From Anaerolineae bacterium (lineage in GTDB: Bacteria; Chloroflexota; Anaerolineae; Aggregatilineales; Phototrophicaceae): a stretch of DNA of 64,000 nt. Both the position numbers and the translations under genes were made by a program. This document shows positions 9,649 through 27,802 of this stretch, one piece after another; within the stretch, counting starts at the first letter, position 1; the number at the start of each line of letters is the position of its first letter. The notes under the pieces were generated by a model, which searched no databases, had not been told where the DNA came from, and saw only the letters and a list, made by a program, of their open reading frames with translations. The stretch spans positions 44,906 through 108,905 of the forward strand of contig JADLAY010000017.1 in NCBI GenBank assembly GCA_020849765.1, given 5' to 3'.

Positions 9649-11004
9649 TTATGGAAGCCCCAACCCTCCTGGCAATCCGCCGCCACCGCCGCCCGTCACA
9701 TTGTTGACCACGTCGTTGACGTTTTCGACCACCGGGTCGACGACGCCACCCGTATCGCCGCCGGTCGTCTCATTCACGGTTTCGACGACCGGATCCACTA
9801 CGCCGCTGGTGCCGCCGGTATCCGCGGAATTGAGCACGTCGTTGACCGTATCGACCACCGGGTCGACGACGCCGCCCGTATCGCCGCCGGTCGCGTCATT
9901 CACCGCGTTGACGACCGGATCAATCACGCCGCTGGTGCCACCGCCCGTGCCCGTGGAGTTGAGCACGTCGTTGACCGTATCGACCACCGGGTCGACGACG
10001 CCGGTCGTATCGCTGCCGGTCACGCCATTCACGGTGTCCTGAACGCCGTTGACGATCGGGTCGATGACATTGCCCGCGCTATCGACGACCGGGTAGACGA
10101 TGTTGCCTGCGCTATCCACAACCGGCTCGATGATGTTGCCCGCGCTGTCGACCACAGGCTCGATCAGGCCGATATCGACGATGCTCGGATCGATGGTCGA
10201 GACGACGCCGGTGATCAGGTCGATGAGCGAGTCGGTATCGCTGATAGTGTCGTCGACGATAGTCACGACCGGAACATCCGAGCAATCACCGCCGACGGTC
10301 ACGTCTGAGACGGAGATGAGGCCGGTCGTGCCGTTATCATTGATCAGCAGCAGATCGCCCGTATCGACGCTGCCGACGACGGCCACAGGCGCTTCCGTGC
10401 CGACGGCAATCGCCGAACCGCCGCCTGAACTCGTCTGGATCGAGACGCCCGTCCCACCATTAGAACCCGCCAGGCACGACGTACTGGTCAGGTCGATGCC
10501 ACCCTCGATCAGCAGCGAGCCGTCGGCGGTCGTCGCCATCGAGGCCAGCAGGTCGAAGTTCTCTTCTGAGCAGGCAATGTCATTCGGATCGCCGGTCATC
10601 AGCATGAGGCCGTACCACTGCGCCTGCTGCGGATTCTGCGCCACGACATTCAACACATAGTTGGCACTACCGGGCACGATGCGCAGGCACATACCGCTGA
10701 CGCCGAGCTTCGCCATCATGACGTTCTCCAGCGTCAACTGGTCTGAGATGATGACGTTGAGCGGGTCCTGGTAGTCCTGGCTGGCCGCCATCACGTAAAT
10801 CGTCTGATTATTGAGCGCAGAGAAACGATACTGGTTGGACATCTGCGCGCCATTTACGTATTCCTGAACAATCTGGCCAAAGGGCAATACTGTGGGTACA
10901 GTCTGCGCGCCAGCGGGCTGAGCCAACAGCAGACTTACGAGCGATAGCATAATGAGAGCGACGAGGTAAGGTTTTTGGAGCCGCATACTGTCACTATCCT
11001 TCAA
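9649..11004 (-). CDS. secreted repeat protein (signal peptide, C-terminal tandem VVDPVVDTVNDVLN-type repeats)
   Basis: Signal peptide MRLQKPYLVALIMLSLVSLLLAQPAGAQ. The C-terminal half is built from tandem ~40-aa repeats encoded by ~120-bp DNA repeats. GGAGGA-TTAA-TTG start at 11004 or AAGGA-ATG at 10986. AT-rich upstream region. Confidence 0.7.
   Translation of the reverse strand: MKDSDSMRLQKPYLVALIMLSLVSLLLAQPAGAQTVPTVLPFGQIVQEYVNGAQMSNQYRFSALNNQTIYVMAASQDYQDPLNVIISDQLTLENVMMAKLGVSGMCLRIVPGSANYVLNVVAQNPQQAQWYGLMLMTGDPNDIACSEENFDLLASMATTADGSLLIEGGIDLTSTSCLAGSNGGTGVSIQTSSGGGSAIAVGTEAPVAVVGSVDTGDLLLINDNGTTGLISVSDVTVGGDCSDVPVVTIVDDTISDTDSLIDLITGVVSTIDPSIVDIGLIEPVVDSAGNIIEPVVDSAGNIVYPVVDSAGNVIDPIVNGVQDTVNGVTGSDTTGVVDPVVDTVNDVLNSTGTGGGTSGVIDPVVNAVNDATGGDTGGVVDPVVDTVNDVLNSADTGGTSGVVDPVVETVNETTGGDTGGVVDPVVENVNDVVNNVTGGGGGGLPGGLGLP
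9690..10060 (-). repeat. tandem ~120-bp coding repeats within the secreted repeat-protein gene
   Basis: Units such as gtcgttgaccgtatcgaccaccgggtcgacgacgcc...ggagttgagcac repeat at least three times. Approximate bounds. Confidence 0.6.
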
Positions 11005-11326
11005 TTAATCCTCCGATAATCTCAACATAAGGTGTCAACCGGACTTTATGACTAAAGGAAGAATTTGTGAATATATGCGCGAGATTTACATTCTTCACAG
11101 ATGGTTGATAGTGCAGACGTTCCGACGCTCAAATGCGCAAGCGCAGGTTGTCTCAAGGGTTCTTTAGGAAAACCTCAAGGGTCACTAGTAGCTAATATAA
11201 ACGACCTTGAAGCCCGATCTGCGGCTCCTGGGGGGATATTTGCTGCATAAATTCGTTGAAAAGTCGCTGGAAATGCATCTTCTGAGGCTCGGTTATTGCC
11301 TGACCAGCGCATTGCAGGCACTAGAG

Positions 11327-12199
11327 CTAACCCGATTCGTCGACGCCGTGGACGATGCCATCACGTTCGAACTCGATCCAGTAGTGATCGGCGAAGGCCG
11401 CCAGCGCGGGGATGCGCCCGATGCGATCGTCGAGCGCAGTGAGTACACGCAGCAACGGAGGGCGCCGCTCGATCACGCCATAGATGTCGCTCGGCGGCAG
11501 CCACAGGCCGAGCGGCTCGACGCGCGTCCGCCGGAACCACGGCGCGAAATCACGTGCCAACTTGCCGGGGGATGGGTAGAAGATGGCGGGGGCGGACAGG
11601 GCACGCCCTGTCCCTACAGGCAGGTCGTGATTTGTAGGGACGTCATGCTTGGCGTCCGCCGTCGTGCGCTTGCCTTCGAAGGTCGTCCCACCGCCCCAGC
11701 GCCGGAAAGCGACGTCGAATTCACCGTGCAGCGCATGCCAGCCGATCTCCCACAGGCACAGCGGCGGCATGACGCCGAAGGCCGCCCGCCCGCCCGGCGC
11801 CACGATCGTCGCCAGCCACGCCGCGAGAGGCTGCCAGCCGCTCAGGCAGTTGAGCACACCGAAGTTGGCGAAGACGAGATCGACCTTCTCCTCCGCCGGA
11901 TATGGATTCAAGTCGCTAAGGTCAAGATGTTCGACGCGCACGTTGGCATACCCGGCCAGCTTGGTGCGGGCGGCATCGAGCATCGCTTCGCTGGCGTCGG
12001 TCGCGATCACATGGACGCCGCGCCGGGCCAGATGCAGCGCATCCTCGCCCGTGCCGCAGCCGAGTTCGAGCGCCGTCTCGCCGGGCGCGATCAGCCGATC
12101 CAGCCGTGCGTGGACGCGTTCGCGCAGGTGACGCGCGATCGGCGAGTCCGTGAAGTCGGCGTCATAGGTCGGCGCGAGCGAGTCGAAAGCTGCAGGCAT
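11327..12199 (-). CDS. class I SAM-dependent methyltransferase
   Basis: SAM-binding motif ALELGCGTGEDA, DASEAML motif. Contains an in-frame copy of the 28-bp REP-like palindrome. Follows the radical SAM gene with a 6-bp gap. Confidence 0.85.
   Translation of the reverse strand: MPAAFDSLAPTYDADFTDSPIARHLRERVHARLDRLIAPGETALELGCGTGEDALHLARRGVHVIATDASEAMLDAARTKLAGYANVRVEHLDLSDLNPYPAEEKVDLVFANFGVLNCLSGWQPLAAWLATIVAPGGRAAFGVMPPLCLWEIGWHALHGEFDVAFRRWGGGTTFEGKRTTADAKHDVPTNHDLPVGTGRALSAPAIFYPSPGKLARDFAPWFRRTRVEPLGLWLPPSDIYGVIERRPPLLRVLTALDDRIGRIPALAAFADHYWIEFERDGIVHGVDESG
11591..11619. repeat. REP-like 28-bp palindrome (GCGGACAGGGCACGCCCTGTCCCTAC), copy in methyltransferase ORF
   Basis: Stem GGACAGGGC/GCCCTGTCC with ACG loop. 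28-bp identity with the 39079..39107 copy. Confidence 0.75.
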
Positions 12200-16852: not shown

Positions 16853-18094
16853 CTAGAGTTCCGCGGCGAAGATGTCCGACAGCAGCGCTTCGTAGAGCTG
16901 AGCGCCGACGAAGCGCGTCAGCCACAATTCCGGCCCGGACTCCTGATCGGCGGGGATGATGACCTCCGCCGTGGCGACGAAACGCCCGCGCTGCAAGTGA
17001 GTGAACGCGTGCGTGGCGTCCACATCACAGACGGTCTCGCTGCGCGTGTAGAGTGGGTACTTGAGCAGCACCGGGTTGCTCGGCGTGTAGCCATCGGCCT
17101 CGGCCAGCGTGTCCAGATAGCCATCGGTGATGGCGGCGTGCGCATCCGCGGCGCTCGCGTACGCATCGACCGTGTAGGCGACCTGCATGAACGGCAGTTG
17201 GCTCAGGTCACAGGTGGTCGTCTCAATTGAGTTGGCAACGCGATAGGCGTGATTGTGCGCAGCCAGGAAGTCGGCAAAGGCCGCCTGCTCGCTCTCCGGC
17301 GCGCTGGCCGCCGTCTCCTCGGTCGTGCGGATGCCGCTGCTGGCATCATCGACGATCAGGCCTTCGGGGACGTCCGGGCGAATGACGTCCAGGGCCGCTT
17401 CCACGTCTTCCGCGGTCGTTGTCGAGGTCTCATGCGCCGGCAGATCGACCGCCACTTCAGCCGGGTCGGTCAGGATGACGACCGTTTGCAGCGTCGTGCC
17501 CGGCTCGGGGTCCGTCTCCGGGTCGCGCAGGCGGATCGCGTCGACGTTCGACTGCCCATCGACCACCTTGCCGAAAATAGTGTGCTGGTAATTGAGATGC
17601 GGCGTCGGCACGGTCGTGATGAAAAACTGGCTGCCGTTGGTGCCTGCGCCCGCGTTCGCCATCGCCAGCAGGCCGGGCGTATCGAACGTCAGGTACGGCA
17701 GCAGTTCGTCAGTGAACTGGTAGCCGGGGCCGCTGGTGCCGGTCGCGGTCGGGTCGCCGCCCTGGGCCATGAAGCCCTCGATCACGCGGTGAAAGGTCGT
17801 GTTGTTGTAATAACCGTTGTCAGCCAGGAAGACGAAGTTGTTGACGGTCAGCGGCGTGTATTCTTCGAGCAAATCAATCGTGACCGGGCCGACGTCTGTG
17901 CAGAAGACAGCGTAGTAATCCGCGTTGGCTTCGAGCACCGTTTCCGGGTTTTCGTATTCGCGCGATGCGGGATCGGCGGCGGGCACGGCTTCGGCGCAGA
18001 TGTCCGCGGGGGTGCGCGCCTCTTGGGCGGCGGCGGGCAGCGTCATCGCCAGCACGAGCGCGGCGGCGATCAGCAGGGATAAGCAGCGTTTCAT
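16853..18094 (-). CDS. peptidyl-prolyl cis-trans isomerase, cyclophilin type, secreted, with C-terminal extension
   Basis: Signal peptide. Cyclophilin core FHRVIEGFMAQGGDP...GSQFFITTV...HTIFGKVV. Confidence 0.9.
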   Translation of the reverse strand: MKRCLSLLIAAALVLAMTLPAAAQEARTPADICAEAVPAADPASREYENPETVLEANADYYAVFCTDVGPVTIDLLEEYTPLTVNNFVFLADNGYYNNTTFHRVIEGFMAQGGDPTATGTSGPGYQFTDELLPYLTFDTPGLLAMANAGAGTNGSQFFITTVPTPHLNYQHTIFGKVVDGQSNVDAIRLRDPETDPEPGTTLQTVVILTDPAEVAVDLPAHETSTTTAEDVEAALDVIRPDVPEGLIVDDASSGIRTTEETAASAPESEQAAFADFLAAHNHAYRVANSIETTTCDLSQLPFMQVAYTVDAYASAADAHAAITDGYLDTLAEADGYTPSNPVLLKYPLYTRSETVCDVDATHAFTHLQRGRFVATAEVIIPADQESGPELWLTRFVGAQLYEALLSDIFAAEL

Positions 18095-18329
18095 CTAGAC
18101 TCTCCGTTCAGTCAGGCGGGAGGCTCAATGGTAGCCGATACGCCCAGCTTTGCCAGGGCGGGAGTTTGAGGACAGAGGCACGCCGAAGCACTCATAGTCA
18201 GCCAGACTGGCTTACCGACGTACCATTTGCCAGACGACTTAAGAGGATCATCCTCCCCCATTTTCACGGGGGTTTCGACACTTGGCGTAGAAGATTTACA
18301 AATTTCTTCTATTTGGAAATTATCATGCT

Positions 18330-19367
18330 ATGGCATACGGCAATCGTATGAACTTCTACGGCCACACAAGCCTGATGGAAGGGTCGGTGAATATGAGTTT
18401 GGAGACATCTCACGTGCAGTTGGCGCAAGCGATGGCACATCTCGAAAAAGATGAAACAGCCGAAGCGTTGCGCTTGCTGAATGACCTGATTGAAAAGGTC
18501 GACCTCCTCGACGCGCATCGTTTGCGCTTCACCATCTTGATAAAACGAATCGACAATCCCCATGATCTACGCGCATCACTGGACGTGTTGCGAACGGAAG
18601 CCCCTGATATATACAGCGCCGGGTTGGTGGAACTCGAGACTCAAATTCACAATCGTTTGAGCGAATTGCAGGACGGGATTACCGAAGCCACGCAGCGTGC
18701 CGAGATGCAGTCGTACCTCGACGAATACGACGCACTTGTGGTGTTGAGCGACCTGTTCCCCGTCATTCAGGTTGCCCGTGGGCTGGGCTATATGGCCGCC
18801 GCTCGCATCAGGGACAAAAAGGGGCAACCGGGCACCGAATCCCCCTACGAACATCTGCGGAGATTGCTCGCTAAAGACATGGCGGTCCCTTTCATGCGCG
18901 AACGTAATGAAACGGACAGCGTCGACGATACACAGGCCGAAAGGTGGCGCATGACCGCAGAACAGGCACTGTCTGCGGCGCTGATTTCCTTAACGCCGAA
19001 TCATCCATCCGTTGTCGAGATCCATGAAGTCTTAGGGATGCTCTACGAGGGCATGCATGAATACAGCAAGGCACTGCGGTCCTTTCAGGCCGCAATAGAG
19101 CACGGCAGCAGCAACATGGAGGACAAGGTACACGAACTCACAACGAAGATCAAACAGGAAACAGAGCGTCTGGCACTGGAGCGAGTCGATTCACTCCTGG
19201 CGAACCAACACCTGGACGAAGCCGAAACCTGCCTGGCGGAGTATGCGCCAGATGCGTTGACCGATGCCTGGCACTTACGTTATGCGGAACTCGCATTGCT
19301 ACGTGGTGACCGCGAAACAGCAATGCATCACTACGCCCTCATCCTGCCCCTTGTCCACAACAAATGA
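18330..19367 (+). CDS. hypothetical alpha-helical protein (partner of the downstream P-loop ATPase)
   Basis: 345-aa ORF with no recognisable motif. 15-bp gap to the next gene. Region looks lower in GC than its flanks. True start may be an internal Met (e.g. MSLETSHV). Confidence 0.55.
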   Translation: MAYGNRMNFYGHTSLMEGSVNMSLETSHVQLAQAMAHLEKDETAEALRLLNDLIEKVDLLDAHRLRFTILIKRIDNPHDLRASLDVLRTEAPDIYSAGLVELETQIHNRLSELQDGITEATQRAEMQSYLDEYDALVVLSDLFPVIQVARGLGYMAAARIRDKKGQPGTESPYEHLRRLLAKDMAVPFMRERNETDSVDDTQAERWRMTAEQALSAALISLTPNHPSVVEIHEVLGMLYEGMHEYSKALRSFQAAIEHGSSNMEDKVHELTTKIKQETERLALERVDSLLANQHLDEAETCLAEYAPDALTDAWHLRYAELALLRGDRETAMHHYALILPLVHNK

Positions 19368-19382
19368 GCAAGGAGATACCTG

Positions 19383-22124
19383 ATGGACTGGAATGATCCT
19401 TTCGTTGTGAGTAAAGCCTACGCGAAACTCCGCTCCATCGATCCGCCTGTCAATGCCGGATCAGATGCGGCTGTCCTTCCTCACGTGGCATTCAACGTGC
19501 CCGCCGATGACGTCAGGCGCCGAGCGCTTGCGGGTGTGCTTCATCTTCATCGCCAGGGTCGCCAGCAGTTTGATTTTCTGCCGCACCTGGAGACAGCCCT
19601 CCTATATGGCGACTTCGATGAGGAGACCAAACGCACGCTGCGCGCTGAAATCCGGGCGATTGAACGCGAGCGCCAGCAAGCTGCTTTTGCGACGATTCGC
19701 AGACTCAAGCGGAAGAAACTGCATGTCCAACCGAAACGCCGTTCGACAACCCGCCAACCCGCATCGTTTGTGATGCAGGTGACCGACGATAGCTGCATCG
19801 TCCGCTTTGGCTACCGGCTCACTAACGTGCGCGCAGTGCGCTTTGACATGCCCGTCGAGGCGGAAGGCGCGGCGTTACTCAGAACGCTGACTCAGGCTGT
19901 TGAAATCTGGAAAGACCGCCTCAGCCTGGGCCTTGAAGCTGACTTTACCTGGCGCTATTCCAGCGAGGCTCACCGTGTGAATCTGGAGTTGCTGGTTGAG
20001 CTTCATTTGCCGGAACCTGAAATGGCGGAGGAAGTCGTTCGTGGCCTACAAACCATCATTGAAAACCAACAGCCATTTCCCGAAGTCTATCATTTTGCGC
20101 GAATCGTCGAAAGGAAGCATCTTAAGAATTTCTACGGCAGCACATCGTTTGCCAGCGTCGCGGAGATCGTGCGCCATGAAGGTGTGATGGAGTATGAAGG
20201 GAAGAACCTCTATGTGATCTTTCCGGTGAAGGTGGATAGCGACCGCTTACACGATCTCATGGTCTACCTGCGTAGCGCAACGGATGGCAACGTCATCGAC
20301 ATCAAGATACGCCCCTCTGCGGTGACGCGCTCAGAGATCGATGCCGCTCTCGAGGCTATCACCATTGGCGTGAGTTATTATGACGAGGACAGCGAAGAGA
20401 TTCGGCTGAAAATGTCGGAAGGCGCGATCTTTGACCATCAATGGCTGAAAGCGCTGGATGCTTACCGGATGATGCTTTCCCAGATCCACAGCCAGGCTTA
20501 CGAAGTGCGCCTGCGTGTTGCCAGCAAAACGGATATCGACATCTTGCCGCTCGCCACGTTGGCCGGGCGTTCGCTCCTTGGCCTGGGAGCCTTCGACGTG
20601 ATTCCGGCGGCCTATGGTGCTCGGTCAATCGCCCTTGACGATCTGTCACCTCGCACCCGCGCCCCGGCAGAACTATCTCGGTTGCGCCGCATGTGGTCGC
20701 TTGTCGAAACAGCTTTTGTCACCCGCCTGCCACGACCATCTGCGGCGGGCATACCGGGAATCCCAATGACCCAGGTTAAGCCCCACCGGATACCCTCCGG
20801 GCTGCCTGAAGAGGGCTGTGTACTTGGACAGGTCACATCACAGGGAGAAACCACACCCACCCTGGTAAAACTACCTTACGTCGACCGCACACGACATGTC
20901 TATGTCGTCGGCCGAACCGGCACCGGCAAAACGACCATGCTGCATAACATGGCGCTGCAAGACATCGAAAATGGGCATGGTGTTGGGGTGATCGACCCCC
21001 ATGGCGACTTGATCGATGCGTTGTTGGAGCGCATACCGCACCATAGAGCCGGGGATGTTGTCCTGTTTGACCCTGGGGATATCTCGCGCCCGGTGGGTTT
21101 GAATTTGCTCGACGTGGAGGGCCCCATTGCGCAGAATTTGGCTGTCGCCGATTTTATTGGCTTGATGTACAGCATGTACGATCCGGGCCACACCGGGATC
21201 GTCGGCCCTCGATTCGAGCAAAGCGTGCGCAACAGCATGTACACCGCGATGGCAATACCCGGTGCGACCATCATCGACGTGCTGCGCATTATTAGCGATA
21301 ACCGGTACAGTCACGACGTCCAGAAGTATCTCACCGATCCGATTGTCAAAGACTATTGGGAGAAGATATACGACAGCCAGAGTGACTTTCATCGCAGCGA
21401 AGTCAAAGACTACATCACCAGCAAGTTCAGCCGCTTCACATCCGATCGTATGGTGCGGCAGATTATCGGCCAATCCAAGACCAGTCTCAATTTCGCCGAC
21501 ATTTTCAACAACAAGAAGATTCTGCTCGTCAATCTGGCGAAAGGGCGTATCGGCGAGTTCAACAGCCAGTTCCTGGGCTTCATTCTCGTATCGCAATTGT
21601 TGATTGCCGCATTCCAACGTGTGAACCAGGCTGTTGATCTGCGTATCCCATACTATCTGTACATTGATGAGTTTCAGAACTTCGCCACACCCGGCCTGGG
21701 GGCCATGCTTTCGGAGGGGCGAAAATATGGACTGGCGCTCACGCTGGCGCATCAATTCATCCATCAGCTGGATGTCAAAATCCGTGAAGCGGTTTTCGGT
21801 AACGTAGGCACTATCTGCGCTTTCCAGGTTGGGTTGCAGGATGCAGAGTATCTGGCTCGCGAGATGTACCCCGTCTTTGGCACTGACGATCTGGTCAATT
21901 TGCCAGCATATCATGCCGCGTCCAAGATTTTGGCGCACAAACAGACCCTGATGCCGTTTGTGATGCAGACGCTGCCCGAACAGAATCAGCCGCGAAAGGA
22001 AGTTGCTGACGCCATCCGGACTTTCAGTGGCCTGACATATGGGAGTAACGCGGCTGTCGTCGAAGACAACATTCGCGCTCAATTCGCGCTGCCCCTACAG
22101 AAACGTATGGAGCTGCTGACCTGA
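19383..22124 (+). CDS. FtsK/HerA/TraG-superfamily P-loop NTPase with large N-terminal domain of unknown function
   Basis: Walker A VVGRTGTGKT at about aa 505, IDPHGDL, Walker B YLYIDEFQNF, then EGRKYGLALTLAHQ (arginine-finger/Q motif typical of the HerA/FtsK/VirD4 clade). No TM segment. First ~470 aa uncharacterised. Confidence 0.75.
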   Translation: MDWNDPFVVSKAYAKLRSIDPPVNAGSDAAVLPHVAFNVPADDVRRRALAGVLHLHRQGRQQFDFLPHLETALLYGDFDEETKRTLRAEIRAIERERQQAAFATIRRLKRKKLHVQPKRRSTTRQPASFVMQVTDDSCIVRFGYRLTNVRAVRFDMPVEAEGAALLRTLTQAVEIWKDRLSLGLEADFTWRYSSEAHRVNLELLVELHLPEPEMAEEVVRGLQTIIENQQPFPEVYHFARIVERKHLKNFYGSTSFASVAEIVRHEGVMEYEGKNLYVIFPVKVDSDRLHDLMVYLRSATDGNVIDIKIRPSAVTRSEIDAALEAITIGVSYYDEDSEEIRLKMSEGAIFDHQWLKALDAYRMMLSQIHSQAYEVRLRVASKTDIDILPLATLAGRSLLGLGAFDVIPAAYGARSIALDDLSPRTRAPAELSRLRRMWSLVETAFVTRLPRPSAAGIPGIPMTQVKPHRIPSGLPEEGCVLGQVTSQGETTPTLVKLPYVDRTRHVYVVGRTGTGKTTMLHNMALQDIENGHGVGVIDPHGDLIDALLERIPHHRAGDVVLFDPGDISRPVGLNLLDVEGPIAQNLAVADFIGLMYSMYDPGHTGIVGPRFEQSVRNSMYTAMAIPGATIIDVLRIISDNRYSHDVQKYLTDPIVKDYWEKIYDSQSDFHRSEVKDYITSKFSRFTSDRMVRQIIGQSKTSLNFADIFNNKKILLVNLAKGRIGEFNSQFLGFILVSQLLIAAFQRVNQAVDLRIPYYLYIDEFQNFATPGLGAMLSEGRKYGLALTLAHQFIHQLDVKIREAVFGNVGTICAFQVGLQDAEYLAREMYPVFGTDDLVNLPAYHAASKILAHKQTLMPFVMQTLPEQNQPRKEVADAIRTFSGLTYGSNAAVVEDNIRAQFALPLQKRMELLT

Positions 22125-22566
22125 CAACCCGTAATGCAAAGGCAAGAATGCCACAGAGCATAAGGCGAAGACTGGCTTCAGGTGAGCAAGTACCAACGGC
22201 CAATGAGGCGAGAACTGCCGTCAGGGGTCGTCGGCAGTCACCTGTGGCAATACCCAGGACGTTCAACCAGCGGCGAAGATCGGCTTGAGGACGAGCGCGC
22301 CGCCGAGGCAGACGAAGATGTAGACGAGATTGACGACCGCGCGGGTCGCCCAGGGATGGTGCGAGAAATCGAGCCCGACCGCGCGCCCAACGATCACAAC
22401 GACGGTCGCCAGGTCGTGCAGGCCCGCCCGAAATGACGAACGTCATCAGCAGCGCGATCACACAGCGTGGGATTCGGCCTCTCACACGGAAGGCTCATGC
22501 AACCGATGCTAACGCGGCGGCGTATACGGGGTTACGACTCGTGAACACAAATGCAGGGCATTGATC

Positions 22567-23271: not shown

Positions 23272-23359
23272 GCAGGTGATGGGTTTGCTGCAGCAGGGAT
23301 TAGCCGACTATACTGACACAAAGACTGAGTAGGCTATCAGAAGACAAACGGAGGCACGG

Positions 23360-24061
23360 ATGATGGATGCCAGTTTGATTCAACAAGCATATACCAGCAT
23401 TCAGCAGCACTTTGTCGAAACGGGACGCGCTCCACATTACACCGAATTAGCCTCGCTCCTGAGGATTACGCCCGACGAGGCACGCGCAGTCCAAAGCGCC
23501 GCAGCCAAAGCCGGTGTCGGGTGCTGGATTAGCGCAGACACCGATTACATCGCCTCATGGGCACCCTTCTCAAACATCCCCACCCAGTATCTCGTCACGG
23601 TAGACGGCCAACAAAAATGGTATGCGCAGTGAGGCCTGGAATCGCTGGCCGTGGGCTGGCTCTTTCCGGGCAAGGAAGTGCGCATAGAAGCGCGCTGTCT
23701 TGATTGCGGCGAGTCTATCCTCGTGCGCACAAAGGATGGCGAACTTCTGGACGCAAATCCGGACACCATTATCGGGCACATCAGCCTTCCCATCCGCCAA
23801 TGGGGAGCCGTCGCCAACGCCTTCCTCTGAAGTCACATCAATCTCTTCCGGTCGGAAGAACATGCGAAAAACTGGTTGCTCTATGATCCGTTGTCCGAGG
23901 AGTCGATCATGTCGCTGGCGGAGTGGATGCGGCTTGTCCGTGTCGGCTTGTGGCGCAACCGACTGCAGCCGGATTATCTCGCGCGGGTAGGCGAGTATCG
24001 CGCTGAGTTCCTGGCTACGGTGCATGAGATGGGCAAGACAGGCCCCTTCTGGCAGGTTTGA
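23360..24061 (+). CDS. organomercurial lyase MerB-family protein with two in-frame TGA codons (candidate selenoprotein, alternatively a pseudogene)
   Basis: The three same-frame ORF pieces (23360-23632, 23633-23830, 23876-24061) align end-to-end with MerB. This includes the N-terminal HTH-like region, and YAQ-TGA-GLE opposite YAW-C96-ALD99 and AFL-TGA-SHINLF opposite SFC-C159/160-HVHFF. GGAGG RBS before the ATG at 23360. Confidence 0.5.
23645..23659 (+). other. hairpin 12 nt downstream of first in-frame TGA (candidate bacterial SECIS-like element)
   Basis: CUGGCC-GUG-GGCUGG: 6-bp stem with two G-U pairs, loop GUG. Hand-folded only. Confidence 0.25.
23844..23859 (+). other. hairpin 13 nt downstream of second in-frame TGA (candidate bacterial SECIS-like element)
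   Basis: UCUUCC-GGUC-GGAAGA: perfect 6-bp stem with a GGUC loop, reminiscent of the G/U-containing apical loop of the E. coli fdhF SECIS. Confidence 0.35.
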
Positions 24062-24082
24062 TAGACCAGGAAACAACTTTAG

Positions 24083-24098
24083 AGAGCTGATGCTCTCC
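24083..24098 (+). terminator. small hairpin after merB-like gene
   Basis: GAGAGC-TGAT-GCTCTC. Confidence 0.3.
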
Positions 24099-24103
24099 AA
24101 ATG

Positions 24104-24195
24104 CTGCTGATCGTCGGCCTGATCGTCCTCTACGTCGTCTTGCTGCTGCCGGTGCTGCTCAGCAAGCGCATCCGCCACTGGATGAGCACGCGCGG
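24104..24195 (+). repeat. direct repeat copy 2 (duplicated 3' fragment of DedA-family gene, downstream of merB-like gene)
   Basis: Encodes a remnant MLLIVGLIVLYVVLLLPVLLSKRIRHWMSTRG, matching the C-terminus of the 22567..23271 product. Confidence 0.85.
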
Positions 24196-24321
24196 CACCT
24201 CCAAAGGCGACTGCTGAGCCGTAAATTCACACGAAACCCGCGAAACGTAGGTCACGAGTCGGGTAGCGCGGCGCATTCTGTGGCAGGATCGGGCCGTCGC
24301 TCAGCGAATGGAGTACTGCCC

Positions 24322-24717
24322 ATGACACATACTCAGACTCAGTCATCCATCACGCCGTTCATGCTCGTGATCGGCATCGCCGTCGCGCTCTTCCTCGTGA
24401 GCATCGTCGCGCCGTTTTACGCCCTGGGGCTGCATCTCGAACCGGCCAATCTGGTCGCGGGCGGCAGCTTCGATCCGAAAGGCTTCGAACTGACCGGTGG
24501 CTGGCTGCGCATGGTCGGCTTCCTCACGCTCACGCTCGGCCCGCTGGCCGTGGCCGTCTGCGGCGGCCTGATCGCCTTCCGCCTGCTGCGACGCGGGGAT
24601 CAGCTTCCCAGCCGTCTGCGCCTCTACGGGGTGATCAGCTGCGCGGCAGCCATCGGCCTGTGGCTGTTCATCTTCTCGCCGCTGGGCCGCTTGATCCTGG
24701 CCTGGTTTCTCGACTAG
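24322..24717 (+). CDS. hypothetical membrane protein
   Basis: Start MTHTQTQSS with GGAG 9 nt upstream. Four hydrophobic helices, no known motif. Confidence 0.5.
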   Translation: MTHTQTQSSITPFMLVIGIAVALFLVSIVAPFYALGLHLEPANLVAGGSFDPKGFELTGGWLRMVGFLTLTLGPLAVAVCGGLIAFRLLRRGDQLPSRLRLYGVISCAAAIGLWLFIFSPLGRLILAWFLD

Positions 24718-25862
24718 CCAGCAGGGCGAATACTCGAGGCAGCTTCGATATGAGCGGAGGCTGCCTCTGTCCATGCATCCGCATGGCCGATCGCCCCCTC
24801 CAGCACATCCTCTCGCAAGATCTGCCTCATCTTCTCCGGTTGTTCGTGGAACGGACTGTGAGCGGACTGCTCGAAGGTGTAGAAGCCCTTCAGAGGTGCT
24901 TTGATCTGCTCGAAGTATGCCCTGGCTTCCGGATAGGATGTCGTGTAATCGTGGCTGCCATGCACGAAATAGACGGGCAGCTTCAGTTCCGTCACCACTT
25001 GCGTCAGATCGGTGGCGAGGAGCTGCTCCCACAAGACGGCCCTGGAGAAGAACTTGCCGCGCCACAGGCTGATCTTTTCGCTGACCGTGTATTCCGGGCT
25101 CAGCCAAGATCGCAGGAAGATGCCCGTGATGACCGACCTCATGTCGCGCGTCGTGCCGATGCCAAGGCTGTGCATGGCGTCGTCGCGCAGTGCGTTGTAC
25201 GCCGCGGGCAGCCCATCCGTCATCGTGACGGGCGCTTGCTCTAGCTTGCGCGCCATCCTCCGGTTGCCGTTGGCCTTGAACTGCTGAAGCATGTAGTCGT
25301 AGGCCCACTTTTCGGACTTCAGCTGGTACGTCACCTGGCTGATGCCGATGTAGGCGTGATAGATTTCCGGTGTCCGTGCCGCGACTTGCAGACCGAGAAA
25401 GCTGCCCCAGGAATGCCCCATCAGGTAGATCTTGTCTTGACCAAAGCGCTGGCGCAGATAATTCGTGACTTCGAGCGTATCCGCGATCAGTTGCTCCACG
25501 GTGAGGGTCGCCGCGGACATCCCGGCATGGTAGGAGAGACCTGCGCCGCGCTGTTCCCACCAGCAGACGGTGAAGTCGTTCTCCAGATCCGCCGGATAAC
25601 GCCGGTTGAGGAAGTATGTCGGCATTCCAGGGCCGCCGTGAAGGAAGAGCAGCACCGGCTTCGATAGATCCTTGCTCCTGATGAACATGCCCTGGGCCAG
25701 GCCGTTGATGTTGACATGGATCTTTTCGGACAGGCTGCCCGTCAGTGGGTTGCCATCTTCATCGAGGAGCGGCGCCGGTCTTCCGTGACTCCAGAGCAGC
25801 AGCGCGCCGACCGGCATGAGAAGGCAAATCAACAGGATCGTGATTGCAGGCAACATAGGCAT
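24714..25862 (-). CDS. alpha/beta hydrolase (proline iminopeptidase / S33-like)
   Basis: HGGPG oxyanion motif, GHSWG nucleophile elbow, N-terminal signal/anchor. Confidence 0.85.
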   Translation of the reverse strand: MPMLPAITILLICLLMPVGALLLWSHGRPAPLLDEDGNPLTGSLSEKIHVNINGLAQGMFIRSKDLSKPVLLFLHGGPGMPTYFLNRRYPADLENDFTVCWWEQRGAGLSYHAGMSAATLTVEQLIADTLEVTNYLRQRFGQDKIYLMGHSWGSFLGLQVAARTPEIYHAYIGISQVTYQLKSEKWAYDYMLQQFKANGNRRMARKLEQAPVTMTDGLPAAYNALRDDAMHSLGIGTTRDMRSVITGIFLRSWLSPEYTVSEKISLWRGKFFSRAVLWEQLLATDLTQVVTELKLPVYFVHGSHDYTTSYPEARAYFEQIKAPLKGFYTFEQSAHSPFHEQPEKMRQILREDVLEGAIGHADAWTEAASAHIEAASSIRPAG

Positions 25863-25999: not shown

Positions 26000-26494
26000 T
26001 TACGACTCGTTTACAGGCGTGCGCCTGATACGGCGGATGATGTAACGCAGGGTGCCATCCGGCACTTTGACTTCGATCACGTCGCCCTTCTGGCAGCCGA
26101 GCAGGATCTTGCCGACCGGCGATTCGACTGAGACGCCGTCGCCCAGGTAGGCGACTTCCTCGTGGCTGCGCAGGACGAAGGTATCCGTTTCGCTGGTGTC
26201 GATGTCTTCGATGGTGACTTCGTCGCCCATGTCGACGCGATGCGGATCGGGATCTTCCTCAATGATCTCCGCCCGGTCGAGCACCGAACGCAAATAATTG
26301 ATGCGCTCGTCCAGATATTCTTTCTGCACGCGCGATTCGTAATCCGTGCCCTCGTCGTCCGGCTGCAGACCGCCCTCGCGGCGGATGTCGATCAGCTGTT
26401 CGGTCACCTGACGCTGGCGCTCGAGTAAAGCGTCGAGCTCGCGCTTGAGATTGTCATAACCCTGGCGTGTGAGTGTGAAGTTTTCAGCAGCCAT
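26000..26494 (-). CDS. greA: transcription elongation factor GreA
   Basis: 164 aa. N-terminal coiled coil (MAAENFTLTRQGYDNLKRELDALL) and C-terminal FKBP-like domain. GGAGG RBS. The N-terminal extension of ORF 26000..26707 is rejected. Confidence 0.9.
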   Translation of the reverse strand: MAAENFTLTRQGYDNLKRELDALLERQRQVTEQLIDIRREGGLQPDDEGTDYESRVQKEYLDERINYLRSVLDRAEIIEEDPDPHRVDMGDEVTIEDIDTSETDTFVLRSHEEVAYLGDGVSVESPVGKILLGCQKGDVIEVKVPDGTLRYIIRRIRRTPVNES

Positions 26495-26701
26495 TGCACG
26501 CCTCCAATTGTGCGTGTGGTGATTATCCTGAATTGTAGGGCCTTTTGCCCGGACATAGGACAGGGTTCGCGGGTGATGTTCGGCATGTTTACCGGTTGGT
26601 GAGTGAATGGCGACATCTATGGTAATCGCCCCTGTTTCTGTGTAGGATGGAGACTGACACGCGACTCTGGCGTAATGGAGTAGTAAAGCAAGGATAAGCA
26701 G

Positions 26702-27802
26702 ATGCATCGACTTTTTCTGATAGGGGCGGCGCTCGCGGCGGTTTTATTGATCGGCGTGCAGGTGACCGTCGCACAAGACCCGACGGCGACGACTGAGATG
26801 GCCGAGACGGTGGAGAGCCCCATCCCGGAGAACATTCGCCAGTCATTGCTGGCGGGTGGCGTCAATTTGCAGTTTGGCTTTTATGATACGGACAATTACG
26901 AGCCGGAGTCGTTTGACGAGGAACTGCCGTTGATCGCCGAGGCGGGCGCGCGCCACGTGCGGCTGCCGATCAGCATGGACATTCTCGAACGCGATCAAAC
27001 CGGGCGCCTGCGCAGCGACCGCTTCGCCGACGTCAAGCGCTTCGTCGAGCTGGCGCAGTCATACGGCCTGCTCACGATCATCGACGTGCACAACACCGGC
27101 CTGCGCGAATGCGACGGCTGCCCATGGACAGAAAATTACATGTGGGGCGTGGACGTGCCGAGTGTGCGCGAGCGCCACACCAGCCTGATGGTGGCGCTGG
27201 TCACAGAGTTGTATCGCAGTGGTCTGGATCGCGATTGGTTCGTCGTTCAGCCCGCCAACGAGCCGATCTTCTCCAGCAATCCAGGCGACTGGTACGCATA
27301 TCAGGCGGAACTGCTCGGCGAAATGCGCCAGGAGTGCCCGGACTGTGTGTTCTTCGCCATGGCCCACGACTGGCAGAGCATCCAGGCGACCGTCGACAAC
27401 CTCAATCCCCCGCTTGACGATCCGCTGCTCATCTACGACGTGCATTTCTACGAGCCGCTGGCGCTGACTCACTGCGCATTTCCGGGCCAGGAGAACACCT
27501 GCCTCGGATTGGAATACCCCGGCACGTTTACTTCGTGGCGCGGCGAGGAATACTGGGACAAGGCCAAGATCGAAGAGACCTTCCAGCCGCTCGTCAACTG
27601 GCGCGATCAGTATGGCGTGATGGTGCACTTCAGCGAGGTCGGCACTGCTGACCTGCTGGCCGAAGATGTGCGCGCCCATTACCTCGGCGACGTGGTGTCG
27701 ACCCTGCGTGAAGACGGCTTCGGCTACTCGATCTTCGAGTGGCACCGCAACTTCGGCGTCAAGGGCTTCCCGGACGTGCTGGCGGCGGTCTTCCCTAACT
27801 AG
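26702..27802 (+). CDS. glycoside hydrolase family 5 (cellulase-like), secreted
   Basis: Signal peptide. Conserved NEP acid/base motif (VVQPANEP) and nucleophile region HFSEVG. Confidence 0.8.
   Translation: MHRLFLIGAALAAVLLIGVQVTVAQDPTATTEMAETVESPIPENIRQSLLAGGVNLQFGFYDTDNYEPESFDEELPLIAEAGARHVRLPISMDILERDQTGRLRSDRFADVKRFVELAQSYGLLTIIDVHNTGLRECDGCPWTENYMWGVDVPSVRERHTSLMVALVTELYRSGLDRDWFVVQPANEPIFSSNPGDWYAYQAELLGEMRQECPDCVFFAMAHDWQSIQATVDNLNPPLDDPLLIYDVHFYEPLALTHCAFPGQENTCLGLEYPGTFTSWRGEEYWDKAKIEETFQPLVNWRDQYGVMVHFSEVGTADLLAEDVRAHYLGDVVSTLREDGFGYSIFEWHRNFGVKGFPDVLAAVFPN

Follow-up and report, generated by a model that had tools for sequence, protein, structure and literature searches.

A tetratricopeptide-repeat protein encoded beside a VirD4-like ATPase in an Anaerolineae genome: probable halves of one cytoplasmic motor

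Introduction

Two adjacent genes in a genome of the class Anaerolineae raise the question of what an ATPase of the FtsK-HerA superfamily does with a single small protein encoded at its side. The genes lie in a 64,000-nucleotide stretch of contig JADLAY010000017.1 (assembly GCA_020849765.1, positions 44,906 to 108,905), to which we refer as the window. The original prediction, made from the sequence alone, placed them 15 bp apart and co-oriented, between a cyclophilin gene and a DedA-family gene, in an island of lower GC content, and offered two readings: an undescribed variant of the defence theme in which HerA is paired with an effector, or a DNA-translocation module of a degraded mobile element. 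The arrangement is as described, and Pfam identifies both flanks (Pro_isomerase, 3.3e-41; VTT/DedA, 9.2e-17). Our best explanation, to which we assign a probability of roughly 0.55, is a different one, namely that the genes encode two halves of a cytoplasmic, ATP-driven ring motor of the conjugation lineage, which carries a recognition arm of tetratricopeptide repeats (TPRs) and has been domesticated. The genes are as follows.

18330..19367, + strand: upstream open reading frame (ORF), 345 aa
18393..19367, + strand: partner gene within this ORF, counted from its likely start, for a predicted 324-aa all-alpha TPR protein
19383..22124, + strand: gene for a soluble 913-aa ATPase of the VirD4/VirB4 branch of the FtsK-HerA superfamily, assigned by profile matches

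The partner start at 18393 is the likelier one because homologues begin at Met22 of the ORF.

The two proteins are collinear with one fused polypeptide

An exhaustive profile search with the ATPase returned 21,978 cluster representatives at E <=0.001, and the 913-aa architecture was found in just one cluster besides the window's own. In about 40 clusters, mostly of 1,300-1,500-aa proteins, the C-terminal end matches the ATPase from residue ~70-200 to 900. In at least 29 other clusters, all from Anaerolineae and 1,300-1,500 aa long, a partner-like N-terminus, extra TPRs, the N-terminal domain (NTD) of the ATPase and its motor stand in a single chain. The closest of these fused proteins, the 1,422-aa P0010, is collinear with both window proteins: the partner profile covers its aa 2-295 end to end (hhalign 99.2%, E 1.9e-19), and ATPase aa 71-903 align to its aa 588-1418, right after its TPR array. 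The partner profile is likewise collinear with the N-termini of P0024, P0011, P0012, P0013 and P0023.

The fused proteins score above the Pfam cut-offs for TPR_16 and TPR_19 and for the same ATPase domains as the window protein, and their TPR half matches consensus TPR at 1.2e-27. N-terminal TPR arrays were seen in seven of the fused clusters examined, and named members, from Anaerolineae or Anaerolinea, are annotated as 'tetratricopeptide repeat' or hypothetical. They contain ~225-290 aa of TPRs that are missing from the split form. Just past the partner-homologous region, 20 of 29 fused forms (P0016-P0050, aa ~305-350) also carry a CxxC-x10-CxxC zinc ribbon, which is absent from the split forms and from the closest fused relatives of the split forms.

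That the pair is conserved elsewhere, on which the original prediction depended, is borne out by the split loci with visible upstream DNA (the window, L001, L002, L023, L024 and L110). A partner homologue of 292+ to 335 aa lies immediately 5' of the ATPase gene in all six, and the two genes in homologous split loci overlap by 14 nt or are separated by 4-58 nt. A neighbour-joining tree was built on the NTD and motor, rooted with four relatives that have no TPRs and bootstrapped 100 times. The TPR clade was monophyletic in 100/100 replicates, the split forms were monophyletic in 100/100, and the split forms fell within the fused ones in 98/100. The split forms being monophyletic and nested in the fused forms, a single fission is indicated. 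As read from these alignments, the window pair would be the fission product of a long Anaerolineae protein with the order TPR, NTD, motor.

The spacer between the two window genes holds a ribosome-binding site read from the sequence.

19370..19375, + strand: Shine-Dalgarno AAGGAG, in the 15-bp spacer, 7 nt 5' of the ATPase ATG

Together with the tight spacing in the homologous loci, this site is consistent with co-translation of the two putative halves.

The partner is predicted to be a TPR adaptor

Pfam TPR models score just under cut-off on the partner, and a profile of three partner sequences matches consensus TPR proteins at 5e-8. An AlphaFold2 (AF2) model built from 14 sequences (predicted local distance difference test, pLDDT, 85.7; predicted template-modelling score, pTM, 0.75) is made up of 15 helices with a single disordered loop and contains no strands. 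The partner thus combines the helical-hairpin repeat fold with the sequence signature of TPRs. The loop was delimited from the model and the alignment.

18813..18923, + strand: acidic loop, aa 141-177 of the 324-aa partner, of low confidence and probably disordered

Its pLDDT is below 50 at residues 141-152 and 159-177, and in the alignment it is weakly conserved and carries indels.

Neither the AF2 model nor profile comparison revealed a nuclease, SIR2/NADase or other enzymatic fold in the partner. It has no effector match in Pfam or PADLOC and no notable PADLOC score, and its hydropathy profile contains no segment resembling a transmembrane (TM) helix. The identical protein is deposited as hypothetical protein IT320_06390 of an Anaerolineae metagenome-assembled genome. 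On the strength of the model, the partner is a TPR adaptor, and not a nuclease or NADase.

This bears directly on the defence theme. SIR2-HerA and DUF4297-HerA resemble the window pair in joining an FtsK-HerA-superfamily ATPase to one tightly linked upstream gene; however, their partner is an enzyme (NADase or nuclease), whereas the window partner is a TPR array. The ATPase is also far from the HerA proteins of defence systems: it reaches 12.1 bits on NF042944 (HerA_antiphage_2), of which the cut-off is 850, and 11-24 bits over short stretches on the PADLOC HerA models. With an all-alpha TPR partner and HerA defence models far under cut-off, we rejected the identification as a HerA-plus-effector defence pair, which removes a false lead: the locus is neither HerA with a nuclease nor HerA with a NADase.

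The ATPase has a VirD4-like motor

The domains and motifs of the ATPase are listed here, with residues that are invariant in an alignment of 34 homologous sequences.

19383..19727, + strand: helical extension, aa 1-115, corresponding to the last part of the TPR region of fused forms (AF2 and alignment)
19770..20777, + strand: VirB4-NTD-like alpha/beta domain, aa ~130-465, well predicted in the AF2 model
20835..22121, + strand: P-loop motor domain, aa ~485-913 (phrog_5156, Pfam and TIGR03743 matches)
20910..20933, + strand: Walker A GRTGTGKT, aa 510-517 (G510, T512, G513, G515 and K516 invariant)
21654..21683, + strand: Walker B YLYIDEFQNF, aa 758-767 (D762 and E763 invariant)
21714..21755, + strand: EGRKYGLALTLAHQ motif, aa 778-791 (E778, R780, K781, A789 and Q791 invariant)

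All four motifs quoted in the original prediction are present (at aa 510, 537, 758 and 778, the one at 537 being IDPHGDL), and the catalytic residues are invariant across the 34 homologues. Its placement of the protein in the HerA/FtsK/VirD4 clade also holds, as three Pfam models match residues ~480-870 above their cut-offs: TrwB_AAD_bind (33.8 bits, cut-off 20.5), DUF87 (27.1 bits) and TraG-D_C (24.2 bits, cut-off 22).

The P-loop motor bears the sequence signatures of type IV coupling proteins (T4CPs). TrwB is by sequence the closest solved ATPase of a type IV secretion system (T4SS), at 2.6e-6, or 4.5e-8 with a family profile, and the TraD model TIGR03743 matches the motor at 2.8e-12. The curated NCBIfam cut-offs for TraD and VirD4 are not reached (TIGR03743, 45.9 against 366; TIGR03754, 30.7 against 647; NF045973, 29.3 against 250). 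The protein is predicted to be soluble, as the original prediction had it: the highest 19-residue Kyte-Doolittle mean is 1.62, over a conserved core helix, compared with 3.35 for the DedA protein, and there is no hydrophobic segment within the first 480 aa. The window ATPase therefore differs from canonical VirD4, TraD and TrwB in having no TM anchor, no linkage to a relaxase or T4SS, and scores below the curated cut-offs. We rejected a canonical T4CP on these grounds, relaxase and T4SS genes being absent from all nine TPR-clade loci (see below).

The best library match of the motor is phrog_5156, an unannotated 824-aa family of phages or prophages (1e-52, ATPase aa 470-897 against profile positions 376-804). 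The length is similar and the family also has an N-domain, of ~375 aa, but the N-terminal 375 profile positions do not match the window ATPase. Two nSTAND models touch the P-loop only and stay below cut-off (nSTAND_NTPase5, 20.8 against 34; nSTAND3, 14.5 against 27). A STAND-type (Avs-like) NTPase is ruled out by these scores and by the FtsK-HerA affiliation of the motor.

The N-terminal region resembles the VirB4 NTD

The first 470 aa of the ATPase had been called a novel domain with no recognisable motif. Pfam indeed finds no match there, but the novelty did not survive structure prediction. An AF2 model of aa 1-490 (23 sequences; pLDDT 78, pTM 0.65) consists of two parts, the helical extension (helices at 6-17, 44-58, 62-75 and 80-114) and an alpha/beta domain of the VirB4 NTD type, placed ahead of the motor as in VirB4. 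This fold otherwise occurs in the secretion-system ATPase assemblies VirB4 and EccE. The NTD of VirB4 (residues 15-400) provides both the dimer interface and the surface to which VirB3 and the tails of VirB8 bind (PMC9259494). ATPase aa 196-484 moreover share homology with the N-domain of a soluble relative of 855 aa (hhalign 99.2%, E 3e-19). The N-terminal domain is thus not novel at the level of fold or family: it is mostly VirB4-NTD-like and is shared with a large family.

The ATPase therefore has a VirB4-like two-domain plan, with motor signatures closer to VirD4 and TraD. Compared with VirB4/TrwK of the R388 T4SS (PDB 7o42, 7o41, 8rtd), the window motor is closer in sequence to TraD/TrwB. 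It scores 10.9 bits on the VirB4 model TIGR00929 against a cut-off of 643.1 and has no match to CagE_TrbE_VirB (PF03135). We were not able to find VirB3, VirB8 or other T4SS genes in any locus examined. Membership of the VirB4/TraC/CagE family is rejected by both sequence and gene context.

The window pair is best described as a TPR-armed, VirB4-NTD-bearing, membrane-free orphan T4CP-like ATPase, here in two genes. Our literature search found no paper describing an architecture of TPRs, VirB4 NTD and VirD4-like motor, and none combining VirB4, tetratricopeptide and Chloroflexi; the eLife 2020 paper on conflict systems does not mention an ATPase of this type.

The window copy was probably acquired laterally

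The lower-GC island is confirmed by its composition.

18100..22200, no strand: segment of atypical composition, lower in GC and in GC at third codon positions (GC3), holding only the two genes

Across 18.0-22.2 kb GC is 0.50-0.59, compared with 0.62-0.68 on either side. The GC3 of both genes is 0.64-0.65, whereas the other window genes measured lie at 0.78-0.89, with one exception, a GreA-like gene at 0.67. Since the GC3 of the window copy (0.64) differs from that of its neighbours (~0.84) and resembles that of the other split loci (~0.60-0.63), lateral acquisition from a lower-GC relative is the simplest account. Flanking direct or inverted repeats above chance and att-like repeats were not found at the island, and there is no tRNA nearby. 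The flanks of the split loci all differ, with cyclophilin and DedA in the window, CinA at L001, fasciclin-like and trehalohydrolase-like genes at L002 and a CN-hydrolase at L110.

The fused forms present another picture. Three fused genes on contigs of 69-240 kb stand alone among metabolic genes, their neighbours including H+-PPase, mevalonate-pathway genes, ABC transporters, PPK2 and NAD synthase. In GC3 they match these neighbours (0.60 vs 0.58, 0.77 vs 0.73, 0.76 vs 0.75). We found no integrase, relaxase, T4SS gene or recognisable defence gene near them, and across all nine TPR-clade loci (the window and eight others) none of these is adjacent. Directly 3' of one fused gene, P0013, lies a metallo-beta-lactamase-fold hydrolase with a weak match to the Anti-Pycsar protein Apyc1 (L107 14511-15344, - strand).

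These contexts speak to the second original reading, the remnant of a conjugative or mobilizable element in which a coupling protein was left after the relaxase, integrase and transfer genes had decayed. The VirD4/TraD-type signatures of the motor and the lower-GC segment would fit it, as would the more distant coupling-protein-like relatives that do lie beside MobC-type relaxases and recombinases (next section). Yet relaxase, integrase, T4SS, att-like repeat and tRNA target are all missing at the window and the eight other loci, the motifs are intact down to every catalytic residue, and the fused forms look native to their genomes. That the TPR clade is monophyletic, diverse and intact points to selection over a long time and not to decay. 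We thus consider a decayed element highly improbable.

Full-length homologues amount to a handful in 5.8 billion proteins, and a word-index search with the 34-sequence alignment returned the same five proteins and nothing further. No full-length relative was found in 185,579 species-representative genomes, a scan that also missed the window's own genome. Among the matches listed in a metagenome scan there were broad-family ATPases and no fused forms. Annotated phages and plasmids gave motor-only matches at 21-32% identity and IMG/VR contigs gave matches at 25-38%; over this whole range of 21-38%, the deposited phage and IMG/VR relatives are devoid of the TPR and N-terminal regions.

Distant relatives point to a mobile-element ancestry of the motor

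Among the matches listed, the motor shares 40-47% identity with orphan T4CP-like proteins of ~600-860 aa, mainly from Patescibacteria and groundwater. This resemblance fits the orphan T4CP homologues reported from Patescibacteria, where 5,713 homologues of the VirD4 type were counted, just 148 of them near virB4, and where the authors suggested exaptation (PMC12102498). The window ATPase is like these orphans in its motor and in being encoded away from virB4 and T4SS genes. Unlike it, they have no TPR region, and an N-terminal hydrophobic anchor or C-terminal zinc ribbon is present in many. Homology of their N-domain to that of the window ATPase could not be shown by sequence, hhalign being negative for Patescibacteria P0177. 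A comparison of the N-region with the 473-aa membrane protein encoded 5' of a Patescibacteria homologue was negative as well. In the broad family, ~40 of 108 representatives have an N-terminal hydrophobic anchor and the rest are soluble.

The Paceibacteria homologues (L008 7932-13107; L009 9914-11818) have no long N-domain, and the longer forms among them (601-634 aa) end in a CxxC zinc ribbon and a low-complexity tail. At L008 tandem paralogues of 447 and 601 aa are preceded by the 473-aa membrane protein and a 182-aa protein, and the homologues at both loci adjoin efp and mnmA. Over 97 broad-family loci (L006-L104) the recurrent neighbours are a XerC/D-like tyrosine recombinase (18 loci), an FtsB-like small membrane protein (13), mnmA (11) and efp (10), along with small acidic proteins immediately upstream (7-9 each). 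This recurrence may reflect shared synteny in the candidate phyla radiation (CPR) rather than function.

The nearest soluble relatives without TPRs are found in the company of mobile-element genes. P0005, whose motor is ~32% identical to that of the window, adjoins a Replic_Relax protein and a serine recombinase; P0058 adjoins a PF13814 Replic_Relax protein, a second DUF87 ATPase, an HTH_17 protein and an antitoxin; and P0079 adjoins ParDE and a transposase. Among the known layouts of integrative and mobilizable elements (IMEs; PMC5357655) is one that joins a VirD4 coupling protein to a MobC relaxase and a serine integrase. The distant relatives P0005 and P0058 hold the layout of IME class 8 in that survey (VirD4, MobC of PF13814, serine integrase), whereas the window pair and all TPR-clade loci are without relaxase and integrase and the mobile forms are without the TPR arm. 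Since TPR-less relatives stand beside MobC-type relaxases and recombinases as in IMEs, the ancestry of the motor was probably on mobile genetic elements, and the TPR clade looks domesticated. VirD4 coupling proteins of the IME type are the likely evolutionary source.

P0079 has an overlapping upstream gene of its own (L127 1724-3004), encoding 426 aa without a Pfam match; hhalign against the TPR partner was negative, and the two are unrelated. Differing N-terminally adjacent partners may accordingly be a theme of the family. Beside the mobilizable element of P0005 (L003 400-7500) lies a cluster of BubE, a ThiF/E1 protein with DUF6791 and Multi_ubiq, behind which comes a complete type I restriction-modification system; this ubiquitin-like conjugation cluster and the restriction-modification genes look like a defence island.

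A proposed role

In other Anaerolineae the parts make up a single polypeptide of about 1,400-1,500 aa, in which a partner-like TPR N-terminus is followed by further TPRs (often with a zinc ribbon), then by a VirB4-NTD-like domain and last by the VirD4-like P-loop motor. We propose that in the window lineage such a fused gene was split once, with loss of the central TPRs, and the self-contained two-gene cassette would then have moved into the high-GC genome of the window. In the cell, the TPR subunit may dock on the N-terminal helices and NTD of the ATPase and select or gate a protein or nucleoprotein ligand, which an oligomeric ring motor would translocate or remodel in the cytoplasm. Having neither a membrane segment nor relaxase or T4SS partners argues that the motor works there. 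Its descent would most likely be from IME coupling proteins exapted for a host-encoded function.

Could this function be defence against phages or plasmids? The TPR arm would sense an invader protein and the ATPase would itself serve as the effector, which might strip or pump the DNA of the invader, in a sensor-motor variant of the NTPase-plus-repeat conflict systems that are common in multicellular bacteria. Lateral acquisition of the cassette, as read from GC3, would suit such a role, as would flanks that differ at every locus and a sparse-looking distribution (a class as diverse as this one yields ~40 clusters at 50% identity). PADLOC also gives weak matches, to HerA and to mad8 of the MADS system, the latter partial (54 bits, 3.4e-15, profile positions 23-244 of 314). 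We dropped the MADS identification, as the mad8 match is weak and partial and no other mad genes are nearby: the ten neighbouring window proteins match no PADLOC model. One distant relative does sit among proteins of conflict type: on plasmid p131_1 of Bradyrhizobium sp. 131 (L106 1-14200), a 708-aa T4CP-like ATPase with a motor 31% identical to that of the window has two CHAT-domain proteins and one TPR protein around it, perhaps a conflict-system setting for that relative. Weighing against defence, the partner consists of TPRs only and no effector domain is present, the fused forms were not seen to have defence genes at their sides and are native in composition, and both HerA_antiphage_2 and the nSTAND models stay below their cut-offs. 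Defence is a possible role for the window pair for which we found no positive evidence, and we consider it unlikely. If the pair did act in defence, it would represent a new type in which the conjugation-derived translocase is itself the effector.

A housekeeping role in filamentous Anaerolineae could, for example, lie in segregating DNA or passing it across septa, or in building an envelope or secretion complex, with the TPR arm localising the motor. The fused forms in native contexts with matching GC3 agree with this, the related Patescibacteria-type ATPases adjoin efp, mnmA and in some loci XerC/D-like and FtsB-like genes, and the NTD fold is otherwise one of secretion-system ATPase assemblies. 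But a handful of full-length homologues is too few for a core function, there is no membrane anchor, no neighbours are conserved, and the window copy was itself acquired laterally. We regard a housekeeping role as distinctly unlikely.

An exapted motor with no assigned role is the generic reading, and holds the remainder beyond our estimates for defence, a cellular role and a mobile-element remnant. As to the function of the two-part motor that we favour, handling DNA or nucleoprotein in conflict with mobile elements is a guess made with low confidence. A more specific proposal is that a lineage of mobile-element coupling proteins was domesticated in filamentous Anaerolineae, where a TPR sensor arm replaced the membrane anchor and the coupling to a relaxase; we put this forward tentatively, as possible and still well short of probable. 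If true, it would define an undescribed single-gene (here two-gene) cytoplasmic sensor-translocase aimed by its TPR array at foreign or cellular nucleoprotein.

Orphan VirD4-like ATPases exist in thousands away from secretion systems, and the TPR clade offers an unusually informative handle on them. The evidence for fusion and fission points to a TPR array as the protein with which the motor works, and the predicted VirB4-like N-domain suggests where it may dock. The version in two genes, being self-contained and laterally mobile, lends itself to heterologous study.

Other features of the locus and the window

Upstream of the partner gene we found one promoter-like sequence at a suitable position.

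18295..18323, + strand: sigma-70-like promoter match 5' of the partner gene (TTTACA-17-AATTAT, 9/12 matches), weak evidence

The partner upstream region holds 5 such sites, compared with 2.7 expected, so the match is merely suggestive. A terminator scan of the locus gave results at chance level. The 436 bp from the ATPase stop to the DedA start (22125-22560) show a strong excess of A over T (AT skew 0.20-0.27). The only ORFs there, which overlap one another on both strands, look non-coding, and there is no Rfam match.

A second lower-GC stretch lies at 23300-24750 (GC 0.56-0.60), with three ORFs that match neither Pfam nor PADLOC.

23360-23632, + strand: ORF of 90 aa
23570-24178, - strand: ORF of 202 aa
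24280-24717, + strand: ORF of 145 aa, hydrophobic

The lowest GC in the profiled part of the window (0.486-0.52) is at 10750-11500, between ORFs ending at ~11004 and starting at ~11207. The GreA-like gene (26000-26707, - strand), as low in GC3 as the cassette, encodes a ~77-aa N-terminal extension ahead of GreA_GreB_N. The cyclophilin (16853-18094, - strand; 413 aa) has an N-terminus resembling a signal peptide and a ~215-aa C-terminal region without a Pfam match.

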